From sequence record OR352947.1: DNA of 64,000 nucleotides. One strand, 5' to 3'. The DNA comes from Escherichia phage AV117. The notes under the pieces are model-generated. The model did not search any database. It worked only from the letters and a program-made list of their open reading frames with translations, and was not told the DNA's origin. The position numbers were made by a program, and so were the translations under genes. Of this stretch, positions 33,110 to 59,088 are shown piece after piece; positions within the stretch are counted from its first letter, which is position 1; each line of letters opens with the position of its first letter.

Positions 33110-33138
33110 ATAATATCATGTTTGAAGCAAAAGTAAAC
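33110..33138 (-). promoter_or_regulatory. early promoter (-35 GTTTAC, 17 nt, -10 TATTAT) upstream of motA; copy 1 of duplicated segment
   Basis: gtaaac 33133-33138; ataata 33110-33115. Confidence 0.55.
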
Positions 33139-38308: not shown

Positions 38309-40522
38309 TTATTTGGCCGCTTCCACGGCCTTCATGAATTTAACGATTTGAGCGACCTGTTCTTTGGAAAGAGTACCACGTCGTCCCATGTATTCCGACA
38401 CAATATGATAATTGGTTTCGAATTCAATAACCATTTTATCATCATTATCGTAAGCATTATCTTTAAGCTTATCGAAAATTTTAGCACACAGTTCTAACTT
38501 CTTATTCAGATCTCTGTTAGTAGCACCTGAGAATCGATTCCATCCCCATCGATTATTTACTGTTGAAAGTTTTGCAAAATCTTTACTGATTTCTTTGTTC
38601 TTAGAGCTAAAATACTTACTAAGGAAGTTAAGCTCTTCATTACGAGTAATATGATTCAAATAAGGCTGTGCTCTACGACTTGGTGATACATACTCATCAT
38701 AATCTACTTTATCGATTAGCATAATATAGTCATTAATTGATTTTTCGAACAAGCATTCTACTTCACCAAGTTTACGAACTTTCTTAGCAATCTGTGGACG
38801 GACTACAGTGAACTCTTTAATACCTGACAAATCAGCAATACGGGTCAAGAAATTGGAGTCATAGTTCAACCAACCTTTATCTGCGTCAAGACATTCAGCA
38901 TTAGAACGATTACGAACTATAGCATAACCTTGGATTTCATCAGCTTCACTCGCCGGAATAAAGAGATCTTCTGATACCCAAACATCGTTTTCATTCTTAA
39001 AGAACCGATGAGCACTTGGGGATTTAGGACGAGGCCCATTAGAACGAGTCTTGACTTCAATCCATGGCTTAACGATTTGTAAAAGCTCTGAAGTCTTGTA
39101 CATGTTAATGTTGTCGCCATCAAAGATAACTTTAAGGCGTTCCAGAAGTTTCATTGCATCTTCGTCTGTAGGGTCAACGAATAGTACGCTTTTACCAAAA
39201 CCGCGTGGAACTTTACCTGTTAATTTAACCTCGTCTTTAGACATTTCAATTGAATTAAGAGCTCGCATTAATGGAACACGTCCCTTAACGTCGTCAATAA
39301 CAATTTCAACATTTTTAATGTTAATGCCAATCAGACTGTTAATTGAAATAGTTGACGATGAGCTACCACTTTCACGAATACGACGAAGACGAGGGTCTTC
39401 AATGATATCGTATACGACGCCTAGATTACACCATTCAGGTCCCATTTTAAAACGTTTGTACAACTCAGAATAAGTTAGTTGTTCTTTAGAATATTTCAGT
39501 GATTCAATATTAGAACCAGCTTTTTCCATGTATTTACGAGCTGTATAGCCAAGAGAATCGATTTCACGGAATACATGACGTGGATATTCACAATCAATCC
39601 ATTTCTTAGAATCTTCAGCAAATAATTTTGCATCGATTTCTGCAACACGTTTATGGATATTTGCTACTGTACGTTTATCAAATGACAATGCTTCACGAGA
39701 CGGGGCTACATCTAGTTCACCCATAGGGAATTTAATATAAGCTGTAGTGCATCGCGTCATCATCCATGTTTGTTCTTTAATAACACTTCCAATTGGATAT
39801 ACAATACCACCATAAACAGCCATGATATTACCACGTTCACCCCATGGAGCTTCCTTGGCCAAATATACATCATCGAATTCCGGGAAGTATTTGATATCTT
39901 TAACACCACGAACTTCTGCAATATCGCCGAGAGGACGCATAACATAAGCAATTTCGGATGCGAACTTTTCAAAATCTTCTGGGTTAACAGGCACAACTAC
40001 TTCAACGCCGGTCCGGTCATCAGGGCCCATCTTATCTACGAAGGTTGGCTTAATTTGTGGGCCTGTGTCATCTTGGTAGATTACGTAACCACGAACTTCA
40101 CCATTGTGATAAGACGTAAGGTTAAACGTATCAGTATATGCTAATGGAGCTTTAGAACCGAGTCCGAATCCACCGATGAAATCGTTACTCGATGTTTTAG
40201 TTGAAGCAAAATATGAGTTATAGATTCCTGGCTCTTCATCATTACCTCGAATGGTGAAATCACTCATACCAGGACCAAAGTCTCGAACTACAAAACGTGG
40301 GTCTAAACGACCTGGAGCCTGAACAATAAACTTATCAGTGCAACCATTAAGAATTTGTCCATCGATACAGTTTGTGATTAATTCACGTACACAAGCCAAT
40401 TCTTTGTTTGTATAAAGGTCATTAGACAAAATCTTATAAACTTTACTATTGCCTTGAATAGTAAATGCTGTGCTCTTACCGCCTGAACCAATAATTGTTT
40501 CTTTAGCCGTTTCAATAATCAT
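38309..40522 (-). CDS. rIIA: rIIA protein
   Basis: 737 aa; N-terminal region matches recalled T4 rIIA (MII.T.KETI.G.G.KS.AF.I....KV.KILS.DLYTNK). Confidence 0.9.
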   Translation of the reverse strand: MIIETAKETIIGSGGKSTAFTIQGNSKVYKILSNDLYTNKELACVRELITNCIDGQILNGCTDKFIVQAPGRLDPRFVVRDFGPGMSDFTIRGNDEEPGIYNSYFASTKTSSNDFIGGFGLGSKAPLAYTDTFNLTSYHNGEVRGYVIYQDDTGPQIKPTFVDKMGPDDRTGVEVVVPVNPEDFEKFASEIAYVMRPLGDIAEVRGVKDIKYFPEFDDVYLAKEAPWGERGNIMAVYGGIVYPIGSVIKEQTWMMTRCTTAYIKFPMGELDVAPSREALSFDKRTVANIHKRVAEIDAKLFAEDSKKWIDCEYPRHVFREIDSLGYTARKYMEKAGSNIESLKYSKEQLTYSELYKRFKMGPEWCNLGVVYDIIEDPRLRRIRESGSSSSTISINSLIGINIKNVEIVIDDVKGRVPLMRALNSIEMSKDEVKLTGKVPRGFGKSVLFVDPTDEDAMKLLERLKVIFDGDNINMYKTSELLQIVKPWIEVKTRSNGPRPKSPSAHRFFKNENDVWVSEDLFIPASEADEIQGYAIVRNRSNAECLDADKGWLNYDSNFLTRIADLSGIKEFTVVRPQIAKKVRKLGEVECLFEKSINDYIMLIDKVDYDEYVSPSRRAQPYLNHITRNEELNFLSKYFSSKNKEISKDFAKLSTVNNRWGWNRFSGATNRDLNKKLELCAKIFDKLKDNAYDNDDKMVIEFETNYHIVSEYMGRRGTLSKEQVAQIVKFMKAVEAAK

Positions 40523-40735: not shown

Positions 40736-40827
40736 AATATTCTCTTCAGTAGATTCCTAGGGCACTATTACTAAAGACCATATAATCTATCATCTTATGT
40801 GTAATAGTGCCTCAGGCTATTCAGGAT

Positions 40828-44890: not shown

Positions 44891-45144
44891 TAAGTTGTAC
44901 CATTTTCAGTGATTTCACGGAAGATGCCATAGATAGGCATTTCGTCACCGAGTTTTTCGTAAACGTAAACCACTTCGGTGTAGCATAAAAATTCGGTCCA
45001 GTTTTTCTGTACAACAACTAAATCAGGATTAAACAGAACATCTTCAAACTCATCGATGTTTGAATCAGTAGTTACGTTTTTAATGATTTGACGTTTCATA
45101 ATATTCTCCTCTTGTTTTGATAGGTCTATAGTATCATAGACCAT
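44872..45144 (-). CDS. hypothetical protein (90 aa)
   Basis: ORF track. Confidence 0.5.
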
Positions 45145-45157
45145 AGTTGTTGTACAT
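45128..45157 (-). promoter_or_regulatory. early-type promoter-like element with GGTCTAT/ATAGACC inverted repeat
   Basis: variant -35 on minus strand; -10 TACTAT. Confidence 0.35.
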
Positions 45158-45681
45158 CATTTTAGCAAAATAAAATCAACTTGTTCTGACAATGAACGTC
45201 TAAACATTAATTGACAACTTCCGAGGATGAAATCAGGTGCTTCATAGACCGCGATGTAGTATCCTTTAGCTTTCAAGAGTTCAACATCCACCTGGTCATC
45301 AAACCATGCATAAACCGCGTCAACACTTTCAAATCCAAAATATAACCCTTTAGCCCAATCTTCACTCAATTCAAATGAGTGGTCAATTCTATAGTATCTT
45401 AAGATATTTTGTTCAAGGAGTTTGTCTTCATTTACTGTAGGACGATTAGGGACATTATAGTTGTCGCCGTGATGGTAGAAGTTACCTGAGAGTATTCCAT
45501 GCTTATCAAGGAACTCCCATGTTTCTTCAGAGTTGTCGGTGCCCGACCAACCGTATGGCGAACGAGGTTCTTTATTCCAAGAGGTTTCCCAAATTCTGAC
45601 GGCTTTACCATCTTCGATAGCAATTCCTGGTAATGATTCACGTTGAGTACAAAAACTACGTTCTACGCGGTAAACTAACAT
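45157..45681 (-). CDS. hypothetical protein (174 aa)
   Basis: ORF track. Confidence 0.55.
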   Translation of the reverse strand: MLVYRVERSFCTQRESLPGIAIEDGKAVRIWETSWNKEPRSPYGWSGTDNSEETWEFLDKHGILSGNFYHHGDNYNVPNRPTVNEDKLLEQNILRYYRIDHSFELSEDWAKGLYFGFESVDAVYAWFDDQVDVELLKAKGYYIAVYEAPDFILGSCQLMFRRSLSEQVDFILLK

Positions 45682-45707
45682 ATTATTCTCCTCTGGTTGA
45701 TATGGTT

Positions 45708-45736
45708 ATAATATCAAAACCAGAGGAGAAGTAAAC
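45708..45736 (-). promoter_or_regulatory. early promoter (-35 GTTTAC, 17 nt, -10 TATTAT); spacer carries reverse complement of downstream SD region
   Basis: gtaaac 45731-45736; ataata 45708-45713; inverted repeat 45684-45696 / 45717-45729. Confidence 0.55.
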
Positions 45737-45740
45737 AACT

Positions 45741-46160
45741 TTATGCAAAAGATGCTGGACAATATTTTTTGATTTGGAACTCAGGAACTACCATGAACTG
45801 TCCAGCGAAAACGATGTTATAAAGCTTAACACCATCTTCTACCCATTGGTCCGAAATAAAACCAGCAACTTGATTCGTTGTCCATGGAGACCCGTCAGTT
45901 GCAGAAGCAATAGTAAATTCATGGTCTTTTACAACTAAAACAGACCTGCACAGTTTCCATTTGAACGCACGTTCTTCTGGTTCAATGAATTGGCTTTTAA
46001 CATAACCAATGTTACCATCGGCGTCACGAACTTTAACTTCGTTACGTCCAAAAACCGGATCACTCACGTAAAGAACTTCAACCAACTTCCCGGCAACTTT
46101 AGAGCGAGAAGCAACAGATACATATACGTAATCACCTGTAGAGAGATTTACAATATTCAT
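45741..46160 (-). CDS. hypothetical protein, paralog family member 1 (139 aa)
   Basis: Shares DQWVEDG.KLYNIVF.G.F.VV and VS.ASRSK.AG.LVEV blocks with 46170..46688. Confidence 0.6.
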   Translation of the reverse strand: MNIVNLSTGDYVYVSVASRSKVAGKLVEVLYVSDPVFGRNEVKVRDADGNIGYVKSQFIEPEERAFKWKLCRSVLVVKDHEFTIASATDGSPWTTNQVAGFISDQWVEDGVKLYNIVFAGQFMVVPEFQIKKYCPASFA

Positions 46161-51125: not shown

Positions 51126-51706
51126 TAAAAATTCAACATTTTCAAATGAATGATTTTGTATAATCGAGATAAAGGGTCATATTCTAAGTCTTCAATTTCC
51201 ACAATCTCAAATCTAGAGATACCTGAGACCATGTACTCTTGTTCAGATTCAATCATATCTAGGACATCGATACGAGTTTCTTCCATAACATGCTTAGGGT
51301 TTTTTCCGGCAAGTACAATGTTAATCATGTTTTGGTAGTAATCAAAAATGAATGGAGCATTCCTGAGACTAAGAATAGTGTACGTCTGATATTCCCAGCT
51401 CCCGGAGAATTGACGAGCTGTACTGAAATCAGTTGTGAACGATGTTACTCGTCCAGGAGACCAATGACATCCAACAGAAAGAAGGGAAAGTCGTTCTACT
51501 TCTTCCGGAGTTACACCGCGGTAGAGTTCTACTGGTACTGTAGAAGTCATATGCTTACGAACAAGATGGTCTAATTCATAGTGGAAATCCGGGTCTTCCT
51601 TAGAATCGGTGCAAGCCCAGAGAATATTTTGTTCTTGGCGGGTGAATTTGCTATCAATCAGATTTGTTAGGTATTCACGTTCTTGAAGTTCAGATTGACA
51701 TGTCAT
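51125..51706 (-). CDS. modB: ADP-ribosyltransferase ModB-like
   Basis: 193 aa; YRG ... SFTT ... E-x-E motifs; paralog of adjacent modA. Confidence 0.65.
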   Translation of the reverse strand: MTCQSELQEREYLTNLIDSKFTRQEQNILWACTDSKEDPDFHYELDHLVRKHMTSTVPVELYRGVTPEEVERLSLLSVGCHWSPGRVTSFTTDFSTARQFSGSWEYQTYTILSLRNAPFIFDYYQNMINIVLAGKNPKHVMEETRIDVLDMIESEQEYMVSGISRFEIVEIEDLEYDPLSRLYKIIHLKMLNF

Positions 51707-51733
51707 GATAGACCTCCATTTAAAGATAAGCCT

Positions 51734-51762
51734 ATCATAACACGAGAGGAGGGAATGTAAAC
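51734..51762 (-). promoter_or_regulatory. early-type promoter-like element (-35 GTTTAC)
   Basis: gtaaac 51757-51762. Confidence 0.4.
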
Positions 51763-58093: not shown

Positions 58094-58306
58094 TTATCCT
58101 CTTAAATCAGCTTCAAAAACTTTCTCGTCATTAACAAATGCTTTAACTAATGCGTTGTTCACTTCAGCAAGTTGTACAGCAACCCACTCAATTTCTTCAC
58201 GGTCACCTGATAACATGATATCTTTAGTGAACATCTCACCGCTTTTAAACCAACCAATAAAAGTAACTTTAGTTAATTTGCTCATATTTCCTCGCAAAAT
58301 GCCCAT
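58094..58306 (-). CDS. hypothetical protein (70 aa)
   Basis: ORF track. Confidence 0.45.
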   Translation of the reverse strand: MGILRGNMSKLTKVTFIGWFKSGEMFTKDIMLSGDREEIEWVAVQLAEVNNALVKAFVNDEKVFEADLRG

Positions 58307-58599
58307 TCAGCGTGATAAACTGTAGCACCTTTAGTATCATTCATTTGAACTACATCTACCGGAGAAATTACTCGATAGAGACGTGGTTCACCTCCATAAG
58401 AGCGTGCTGCTCGTCCTGCATAAATCTTTGCTAAACCGATATCTTCAGTAAAGAATACCCGATCCAAGTTTTTCTTACGTCCTGTTTCAGACAGAACTCC
58501 TGTTTCTTCAGGAGGACAAAGCATGTTTTCGATGTTAGCTGAACTACTTGAACCGTGATAAAAAATCTTAAATTCTGCTTTACAATCGATGGTTTTCAT
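58282..58599 (-). CDS. hypothetical protein (105 aa)
   Basis: ORF track. Confidence 0.5.
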   Translation of the reverse strand: MKTIDCKAEFKIFYHGSSSSANIENMLCPPEETGVLSETGRKKNLDRVFFTEDIGLAKIYAGRAARSYGGEPRLYRVISPVDVVQMNDTKGATVYHAEWAFCEEI

Positions 58600-58625
58600 T
58601 TTGTTCTCCAGTAGTTGATAGGTCT

Positions 58626-58654
58626 ATAATAACACAACTACTGGAGAAGTAAAC
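58626..58654 (-). promoter_or_regulatory. early promoter (-35 GTTTAC, 17 nt, -10 TATTAT); spacer carries reverse complement of downstream SD region
   Basis: gtaaac 58649-58654; ataata 58626-58631; inverted repeat 58606-58617 / 58635-58648. Confidence 0.55.
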
Positions 58655-59029
58655 TTAAAAACGTAATTTAGATACATCTGCGTTGATTTCGCTTTGGTTT
58701 GCGTCGTATGCAATTAAACGAACAGCTTTAGATGGGTCATTCAATGCATAGAAATGATGGAACATTGCTCGAACGATATCACCATTTACGAGTTCTACCT
58801 GGATAGGAGAACCTTTTTCGAGTTGGAAATGTTCATAAGCTTTGATGGTTCGCAGATAATCAAGTTTTTGATTTCCGGCTCCAACAATTTGTACAATACG
58901 TTTGCCCATGTTTTCCATACGAGATACAATAGTTTTAGGAGCAAGAATAACGTAGGTTGCCAGCGGAGAAACTACTTCAACAGTTGTGTTTTCGGTGATT
59001 GCAGTAAAAATTGCTTGAGACATATTCAT
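58655..59029 (-). CDS. hypothetical protein (124 aa)
   Basis: ORF track. Confidence 0.5.
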   Translation of the reverse strand: MNMSQAIFTAITENTTVEVVSPLATYVILAPKTIVSRMENMGKRIVQIVGAGNQKLDYLRTIKAYEHFQLEKGSPIQVELVNGDIVRAMFHHFYALNDPSKAVRLIAYDANQSEINADVSKLRF

Positions 59030-59058
59030 AATGTTTTCCTCTTGGTTTGTGTAAGTAC

Positions 59059-59088
59059 ATCATATCATGCCTAGAGGAAGATGTAAAC
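59059..59088 (-). promoter_or_regulatory. early-type promoter-like element (-35 GTTTAC) directly downstream of gp41 terminator hairpin
   Basis: gtaaac 59083-59088. Confidence 0.4.

Follow-up and report, generated by a model that had tools for sequence, protein, structure and literature searches.

The window, 64,000 nucleotides of Escherichia phage AV117 (OR352947.1), belongs to an RB69/JS09-like Mosigvirus, and the genes of concern here all lie on its minus strand. Over 3 kb around the motB.2 site it shows 95 to 98% identity to Mosigvirus genomes (RB69, JS09, ST0, and relatives), and the minus-strand gene set near that site comprises goF, cef, motB.2, a motB-like gene, motB, motB.1, and dexA. 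Because these genes are encoded on the minus strand, the inverted repeats described below must be read on that strand.

Ahead of motB.2, a -35 hexamer begins 4 nt past the stop codon (45741-45743) of the motB-like ORF, and the elements then follow in the minus-strand order GTTTAC, TTCTCCTCTGGTT, ttga, TATTAT, aaccatatc, AACCAGAGGAGAA, taat, ATG. A preliminary description of this DNA had proposed that an arm in the promoter spacer pairs with the Shine-Dalgarno (SD) region of motB.2, at 45684-45729; we find the repeat at 45686-45730, where it is perfect over 13 bp and links the spacer to the GAGGAG SD. The helix extends to 18 bp if inner UGAUAU/AUAUCA pairs are counted. The second site described there, at 58606-58648 with 12 of 14 pairs quoted, is likewise a perfect repeat, of 14 bp at 58604-58648. 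It precedes a 105-aa ORF, its -35 hexamer directly adjoins the stop codon (58655-58657) of an upstream 124-aa ORF, and its minus-strand order is GTTTAC, TTCTCCAGTAGTTG, tgt, TATTAT, agacctat, CAACTACTGGAGAA, caaa, ATG. A third site, absent from the preliminary description, lies at 51699-51744, where the -10 region of a promoter pairs with both the SD and the AUG of a modB-like gene; this helix has 16 to 17 bp, including four G-U pairs, and a free energy of -22.5 kcal/mol. The features of all three sites are listed in Table 1.

Table 1. Promoter, stem, and gene coordinates at the three sites (minus-strand features; parentheses give positions of motifs within a feature)
Site	Feature	Coordinates	Strand	Basis
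motB.2	-35 hexamer GTTTAC of early promoter	45731..45736	-	read from sequence
motB.2	5' arm TTCTCCTCTGGTT (anti-SD), fills promoter spacer	45718..45730	-	inverted repeat, folding
motB.2	-10 hexamer TATTAT, in apical part of hairpin; TG before it (45716-45715)	45708..45713	-	sequence
motB.2	3' arm AACCAGAGGAGAA in 5' UTR, holds SD GAGGAG (45693-45688)	45686..45698	-	repeat, folding
motB.2	motB.2, 174 aa, gene with predicted sequestered TIR; ATG (45681-45679)	45157..45681	-	ORF
105-aa ORF	-35 hexamer GTTTAC	58649..58654	-	sequence
105-aa ORF	5' arm TTCTCCAGTAGTTG in promoter spacer	58635..58648	-	repeat, folding
105-aa ORF	-10 hexamer TATTAT, in hairpin loop	58626..58631	-	sequence
105-aa ORF	3' arm CAACTACTGGAGAA with SD GGAG (58609-58606)	58604..58617	-	repeat, folding
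105-aa ORF	105-aa ORF (phrog_2110); ATG (58599-58597)	58282..58599	-	ORF
modB-like	-35 GTTTAC	51762-51757	-	sequence
modB-like	5' arm (C)GTGTTATGATAGGCTT: spacer end, -10 TATGAT (51739-51734), and 6 nt more	51728..51744	-	folding
modB-like	3' arm AGGTCTATCATGACAT(G): part of SD GGAGG (51717-51713) and start codon (51706-51704)	51699..51715	-	folding, alignment
modB-like	ModB-like ADP-ribosyltransferase gene, 193 aa	51125..51706	-	ORF

The promoters of motB.2 and the 105-aa ORF combine a perfect GTTTAC -35 hexamer, a 17-bp spacer, TGn, and TATTAT, and are predicted to be strong promoters of the T4 early type; 26 nt separate TATTAT from the ATG in both cassettes, and the intergenic regions measure 55 to 59 nt. 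At all three sites the upstream stop codon lies 0 to 4 nt before the -35 hexamer or overlaps it, and no terminator was found between the upstream co-oriented ORF and the embedded promoter, so RNA polymerase arriving from upstream should read through. No Pfam match was obtained for MotB.2, the 105-aa ORF, the 124-aa ORF, or the ModB-like protein.

Downstream, the 105-aa ORF and dmd share 4 nt, the last of the former and the first of the latter. The dmd antitoxin gene (58094-58285) has no promoter of its own in the window; Dmd expression may depend on the hairpin-gated 105-aa ORF, in contrast to T4, in which gene 41 immediately precedes dmd.

Folding and accessibility of the translation start sites

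Perfect inverted repeats with loops of 3 to 40 nt were collected over the 64 kb, with 60 first-order Markov simulations as the null model. The repeats at motB.2 and the 105-aa ORF are the two longest, and they are the two observed with arms of at least 13 bp, against 0.017 expected. Free energies of the three hairpins range from -21.5 to -23.9 kcal/mol and z-scores from -4.2 to -5.4; the values are -23.9 kcal/mol (z = -5.4) for motB.2 and -21.5 kcal/mol (z = -5.2) for the 105-aa ORF, and none of 200 shuffles folded as well at either site. The duplex of spacer and SD was computed at -22.3 kcal/mol for motB.2 and -22.6 kcal/mol for the 105-aa ORF, values reached by none of 2,000 spacer shuffles in each case (p<=0.0005), and cognate spacer-SD pairs were stronger than permuted pairs (p=1.5e-4). 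The modB stem is far more stable in the sense strand than in the antisense strand (-18.7 vs -8.1 kcal/mol), which points to RNA and not DNA as the molecule that folds. Across all window promoters no asymmetry between sense and antisense folding was detected (p=0.75), and clearly sense-specific stems were limited to modB and two class-B stems.

The preliminary description further held that read-through transcripts would contain both arms and hide the SD, and that transcripts initiated at the promoter itself would lack the 5' arm and leave the SD free. Both expectations agree with the folding results. In read-through RNA, with 60 or 120 nt of upstream sequence included, the SD core has P(unpaired)=0.00. 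The 5' arms of all three sites, whether located in the spacer or in the -10 region, precede every plausible +1 (the +1 positions being predictions), and the 27-nt own leaders, starting after the -10 hexamer, fold at 0 kcal/mol; extended by 40 nt of coding sequence, the leaders adopt weak structures only (-3.8 to -7.5 kcal/mol).

TIR accessibility was expressed as the energetic cost of opening positions -14 to +3, computed for 75 minus-strand genes in their read-through context. The three highest values are those of motB.2 (20.5 kcal/mol), the 105-aa ORF (18.8 kcal/mol), and the modB-like gene (17.0 kcal/mol), all of them promoter-proximal, and on the genes' own transcripts all three drop to 3 to 5 kcal/mol, the background level. 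Promoter-proximal genes do not in general have occluded TIRs: as a class they are not more occluded than the others (medians of 4.1 vs 4.8 kcal/mol, p=0.68). Hairpins are predicted to occlude the downstream TIR at 3 of 23 promoters in the window. The promoter of the 124-aa ORF (59029-59088) looks like a weaker form of the same device, in which the spacer TTCCTCT pairs with the SD AGAGGAA over 7 bp across a 30-nt loop; its spacer:SD duplex has -12.8 kcal/mol, and opening costs 7.2 kcal/mol in read-through RNA vs 2.6 kcal/mol in its own transcript. A terminator-like stem, GGAGACttcgGTCTCC, is found just upstream of this cassette.

As a positive control, the same metric was applied to the first 50 kb of T4 with GenBank gene coordinates. 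The established T4 cases gave 15.6 (gene 49), 12.9 (I-TevII), and 8.8 (soc) kcal/mol, and T4 motB.2 and T4 modB gave 14.7 and 13.8 kcal/mol. The two T4 orthologues are thus in the range of the established cases, and their predicted occlusion is as strong as that of genes silenced experimentally. In its own transcript, T4 motB.2 still has an opening energy of 9.6 kcal/mol.

Hairpins that gate translational coupling are classical and known from systems such as MS2 and E. coli operons, and the proximity of the upstream stop codons to the -35 hexamers would suit such an arrangement: the hairpin would shut the downstream SD until it is opened by a ribosome completing translation of the upstream ORF, and downstream output would be proportional to upstream output. 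When the stop codon occupies the A site, the ribosome melts only approximately 6 to 9 nt of mRNA beyond the stop. The 5' arms, however, start 10 nt (motB.2), 6 nt (105-aa ORF), and ∼18 nt (modB-like) past the stop codon, and a terminating ribosome would open at most ∼3 of the 14 bp at the 105-aa ORF and none at the other two sites. Since the arms begin 6 to 18 nt past the stop, outside the reach of the terminating ribosome, we judge coupling to be highly improbable.

A helix of 14 to 18 bp at a cistron boundary might also take part in RNA processing or stability, either by providing a site for cleavage of the RNase III type or as a 3' stabilizer of the upstream cistron after cleavage. Boundary hairpins stabilize upstream mRNA in many systems, and the motB.2 helix with its inner pairs reaches 18 bp. 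It nevertheless stays below the approximately two helical turns typical of RNase III substrates, a search of the entire window at Rfam gathering thresholds returned zero family matches, and a processing signal leaves unexplained why the 3' arm coincides, conservedly, with the SD or AUG. A role of this kind appears to us very improbable indeed. Three further candidates were rejected: an intrinsic terminator, because the loops are 17 to 19 nt long (7 nt with inner pairs), the tails contain at most 4 U in 8 nt, and the terminator scan made no call; a DNA cruciform, because inter-arm spacers of 17 to 19 nt disfavor extrusion and the G-U-tolerant changes would point to RNA; and a palindromic protein operator, because arm sequences vary, and covary, from one promoter to the next.

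Covariation and age of the stems

An IMG/VR search with the single proteins MotB.2 and ModB led to three loci each, and GenBank phage records were used instead. The 13-bp motB.2 stem, TTCTCCTCTGGTT/AACCAGAGGAGAA, is common to Mosigviruses. Its counterpart in the Dhakaviruses WG01 and UGJNEcP3, TTCTCCTCATG/CATGAGGAGAA, is perfect over 11 bp and differs in the distal half, and in T4 and other Tequatroviruses the arms are TCCTCGGT(T)AG/CTACTGAGGA, so that the stem covaries across three genera including T4; at the motB.2 site of Pectobacterium phage PM2 no such pairing was seen. In an alignment of seven motB.2 sequences, 87% of the cells pair and four pairs are altered on both sides, with a covariation score that 1 of 500 shuffles and none of the slid registers attained. 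The helix between the -10 region and the TIR of modB is present in six genera (Mosigvirus, Tequatrovirus with T4, Dhakavirus-like contigs, Kanagawavirus, Winklervirus, and Moonvirus), and the spacer between SD and AUG covaries with the bases that follow the -10 hexamer; RNAalifold assigned 17 pairs to this alignment, 5 of them with compensatory double changes.

Within Mosigvirus the stems are polymorphic. At the 105-aa ORF, phage ST0 carries a U-to-C change in the 3' arm that creates an A.C mismatch (-17.0 kcal/mol), and O157 typing phage 6 has this change together with A-to-G at the exact partner position, which restores a G-C pair (-23.2 kcal/mol). At motB.2, AV109 and NHEP11 have C-to-U changes opposite G, giving U.G wobbles in the sense RNA. 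A stem variant in p000y and ZQ3 contains one uncompensated mismatch, and the hairpin still folds at -19.2 kcal/mol. Covariation and compensatory substitution, as read from these sequences, show that the pairing is selected.

The same comparisons bear on whether the palindromes are a nonfunctional by-product of template-switch (quasipalindrome) mutation or of cassette recombination that is simply tolerated. Such an origin would suit the perfection of the motB.2 and 105-aa ORF stems, the recent appearance of the latter (L013 and L017 have the 3' arm without the 5' arm), and the recombination-prone nature of the cassettes. It does not account for the compensatory A-U to G-C change, of which the intermediate was also observed, for the wobble-preserving substitutions, or for the covariation of the motB.2 and modB stems across genera, and the chance expectation is 0.017 per window. 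We find a by-product scarcely credible.

The stem at the 105-aa ORF is young: it occurs only among close Mosigvirus relatives, and the 3' arm was already there in relatives without the 5' arm; L013 and L017 keep the exact 3' arm in this form. In T4-like phages, 45 distinct sequence contexts upstream of the 105-aa ORF were compared, and strong occlusion was computed only for the type found in the window (19.1 vs 2.6 to 9.2 kcal/mol). In many relatives the promoter is immediately preceded by a canonical terminator, such as GGAGCttcgGCTCC with T6 after it; these terminator-bearing relatives show just (A/T)TCTCC/GGAGA(A/T) complementarity, with 0 to 7 bp of spacer-SD pairing. SQ17, which lacks the upstream 124-aa ORF, has the order terminator, promoter, ORF and a 7-bp complement, with the junction inside the SD. 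The 14-bp stem was found only where an ORF abuts the promoter, an association read from the sequences, as the crude detector used for the 45-context comparison of terminators and hairpins missed terminators with TTTCGGGG tails. The restriction of the long stem to contexts in which read-through is unavoidable fits a function aimed at read-through RNA.

Promoter hairpins in general and the PeSL cassettes

Judged by their sequences, the motB.2, 105-aa ORF, and modB elements are structurally PeSL (promoter-early stem-loop) cassettes. This identity had escaped the preliminary description, as had the older modB case and the fact that most promoter-spanning hairpins do not touch the SD. With PeSLs the elements share an intergenic early promoter, a stem-loop overlapping that promoter, and an SD and ATG at the 3' end, as well as many copies per genome and a link to ORF indels between close relatives. 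PeSL stems have been proposed as terminators or attenuators and as recombination sites (Arbiol et al. 2010; Comeau et al. 2014; PMC2839356, PMC4122927). The five published stem positions lie upstream of or just before the start site, none with an SD (PMC2839356), and in the T4/PST pair the stems are drawn upstream of the promoter (PMC4122927). A further difference is that the function published for those elements is termination or attenuation, whereas the stems described here are without an intrinsic-terminator signature.

The window contains 17 early promoters with a strict consensus, and in 10 of them the spacer is significantly complementary to the sequence from the -10 hexamer onward. For the 13 promoters other than those with SD pairing, the summed energy is -114 kcal/mol, compared with -60 kcal/mol for shuffles (p<0.001). 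In seven or eight such promoters the 3' arm extends no further than about +10, with TIR and SD left open; examples of these nonoccluding arms are TAGGACTA/TAGTCCTA, GTAGAGTT/AACTCTAC, and TTGGTACAGG/CCTGTACCAA.

A generic PeSL function is therefore a possible reading for motB.2 and the 105-aa ORF: the stem-loop would be the terminator or attenuator half of a composite cassette and a stretch of homology for shuffling, and its overlap with the SD would be incidental to a short 5' UTR. Published T4-type PeSL stems lie between or overlap the -35 and -10 hexamers (PMC2839356, PMC4122927), and one RB49/phi1 stem-loop cut lacZ expression as strongly as rrnB T1 did (PMC2839356). The prevalence of spacer complementarity (10 of the 17 strict promoters) favors this reading, as do the seven or eight hairpins that leave the SD free, which bear on the two spacer cases, and the indels that map to these cassettes, phi25-307 being without motB.2 and SQ17 without the 124-aa ORF. 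One GenBank record, moreover, labels the motB.2 site "terminator." Against it, no U-tract follows any of the stems, the tails being UAAUAUGU, CAAAAUGA, and coding sequence, and the terminator scan passed over all three stems yet called canonical terminators nearby. Involvement of the TIR has been kept in three genera at motB.2 and in six at modB despite covarying sequence, which an attenuator indifferent to position does not predict, and relatives that need a terminator at the 105-aa ORF site have a separate canonical one upstream of the promoter. A role in recombination is compatible with TIR sequestration and is no rival to it. On balance we think it unlikely that the SD overlap is incidental.

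A second class of hairpins, which leave the SD unoccluded and in which the spacer pairs with the -10 hexamer and the initial transcribed region, occurs on the minus strand at promoters with -35 hexamers at 960, 4857, 6981, 16016, 36009, 36518, and 57136, and at the cef promoter (45100-45156). Relative to shuffles they are enriched (p<0.001), their arms covary between promoters, some contain sense-strand G-U pairs, no U-tract follows the stem, and they match the published PeSL stems. Depositors annotated a "terminator" at or near promoter hairpins in GenBank OL960576.1 (7371-7428) and MK373774.1, which shows that such stems are routinely read as terminators.

Indels at the level of whole cassettes fall exactly at these promoters in Shigella phage phi25-307 (L061 310-372) and in SQ17 (L076 150-241), and the crossovers fall within promoter or SD sequence, in keeping with the PeSL mini-circle model. 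In phi25-307, motB.2 has been lost between two cassettes, and the resulting chimeric promoter still pairs TTCTCCTCT with AGAGGAGAA. Two near-identical promoter/5'-UTR cassettes, GTTTAC..GCTTCAAACATGA TATTAT AGACCTATCAAAACAAA..TTGGAGAAATAAAATGTCT, are located 320 bp apart at 33138 and 33459 (minus strand); the ORFs behind them begin with identical codons, as would be expected after tandem duplication of the cassette. At 40761-40811, between a 366-aa ORF and a 66-aa ORF (minus strand), GGCACTATTAC...GTAATAGTGCC form a perfect inverted repeat of 11 bp around a loop of 29 nt; it has no GTTTAC, and its 3' arm ends ∼24 nt before the ATG.

Proposed mechanism and relation to known systems

T4 early regions contain many tandem promoters and few terminators, and most early genes are consequently carried on several overlapping transcripts. 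We propose that at the three sites a sigma-70-type early promoter is placed inside an RNA hairpin. The 5' strand of the hairpin is promoter DNA upstream of the predicted start site, namely the spacer at motB.2 and the 105-aa ORF and the -10 region at modB, and the 3' strand is the TIR of the next gene. RNA reading through from upstream would fold into a helix of 14 to 18 bp (-21.5 to -24 kcal/mol) that buries the SD, and at modB the AUG too, and 30S subunits would be unable to bind it. RNA from the embedded promoter would start ∼7 nt past the -10 hexamer, without the 5' strand, and its SD would be free. Early promoters of this kind, set in SD-hiding hairpins so that the gene is translated from its own promoter and not from read-through RNA, constitute the explanation we favor, and we consider it reasonably probable.

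The likely benefit would be translational insulation of dose and timing, which would matter most for ModB-type enzymes: protein output would track one promoter that is shut off within minutes, and not the sum of longer-lasting delayed-early and middle read-through. A secondary effect might be Rho-dependent termination of the read-through RNA along its untranslated cistron. The SDs of motB.2 and the 105-aa ORF contain GGAG, the motif cleaved by RegB, which would be accessible in the short transcripts only.

The preliminary description likened the arrangement to the control of T4 e and soc, and the likeness holds for the logic of the hairpin and fails for its timing, which is inverted, as the promoters here are of the early sigma-70 type and not late. 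In T4 e, soc, 49, I-TevI/II/III, and segB, and in Aeh1 mobE, the SD and/or AUG is held in a helix on upstream transcripts, and a promoter within the 5'-strand region yields a shorter, translatable mRNA (PMC3014915, PMC2988022). According to a 2010 review, all known examples of TIR hairpins with an embedded promoter were late genes (PMC2988022). The two arrangements have in common an SD that is paired on upstream RNA, an own transcript without the 5' strand, and opening energies in the same range. They differ in the promoter, which is a late gp55 promoter (TATAAATA) in the e/soc type and a sigma-70 early promoter here, and in that the 5' arm here is the promoter spacer or the -10 hexamer itself. 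There the hairpin delays translation until late; here it would confine translation to the immediate-early pulse. Silencing was proven experimentally for the e/soc type, whereas the early version is computed from sequence.

A bacterial analogue is provided by the CT-rich anti-SD insulators of E. coli sigma-54 promoters, in which a pyrimidine-rich motif within the promoter base-pairs with the SD that follows, and read-through RNA is translationally silenced (Levy et al. 2017, bioRxiv 10.1101/086108). As in those insulators, the 5' arms at motB.2 and the 105-aa ORF start with TTCTCC, which pairs with GGAGAA at the base of the stem. The promoter class (here T4-type sigma-70 early) and the organism are different, and the sigma-54 motifs comprise 3 to 5 nt within 25 nt of the SD, whereas the arms described here are gene-specific, 13 to 16 nt long, and form long helices. 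Our literature search found no paper on TIR sequestration with an embedded early promoter, though the older subscription literature may hold one, and no T4 TSS or Term-seq data set. The hairpin logic and the PeSL anatomy were already known; what would be new, with computational support, is the early-promoter version of the T4 late-gene device.

A wider proposal, which seems to us evenly poised between right and wrong, is that T-even-type phages use immediate-early promoters as translational insulators, with the spacer or -10 region selected to pair with the TIR. ModB, MotB.2, and the pre-Dmd ORF would then be made only from promoter-proximal mRNA in the first minutes of infection, and never from the abundant delayed-early and middle read-through RNA. 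At modB this would be an ancient device (at least six genera, including T4), and it would still be arising anew, as in the 14-bp stem formed upon insertion of an ORF cassette upstream; it would mirror, in the early phase, the late switch of e and soc, and would have been missed in T4 itself. Dosing of individual proteins and immediate-early shut-off in T4 are only partly understood, and a TIR lock encoded in the promoter would offer a gene-by-gene answer; if real, it would also explain in part why stem-loops are welded to early promoters in PeSLs. One prediction is that RNA-seq abundance overestimates motB.2 and modB expression after early-promoter shut-off. Since both genes have T4 orthologues, the proposal is directly testable in the best-studied phage. 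With promoter, insulator, and RBS combined in 55 to 59 nt, the cassette is compact and might be reused in synthetic operons.

The T4 control also brought out genes other than those discussed above. Gene 55, which encodes the late sigma factor (start at 40157), has, at 15.7 kcal/mol, the highest predicted TIR opening energy of the 50 kb examined, with no early or late promoter consensus nearby, and genes 39.1 and 62 likewise exceed 12 kcal/mol.
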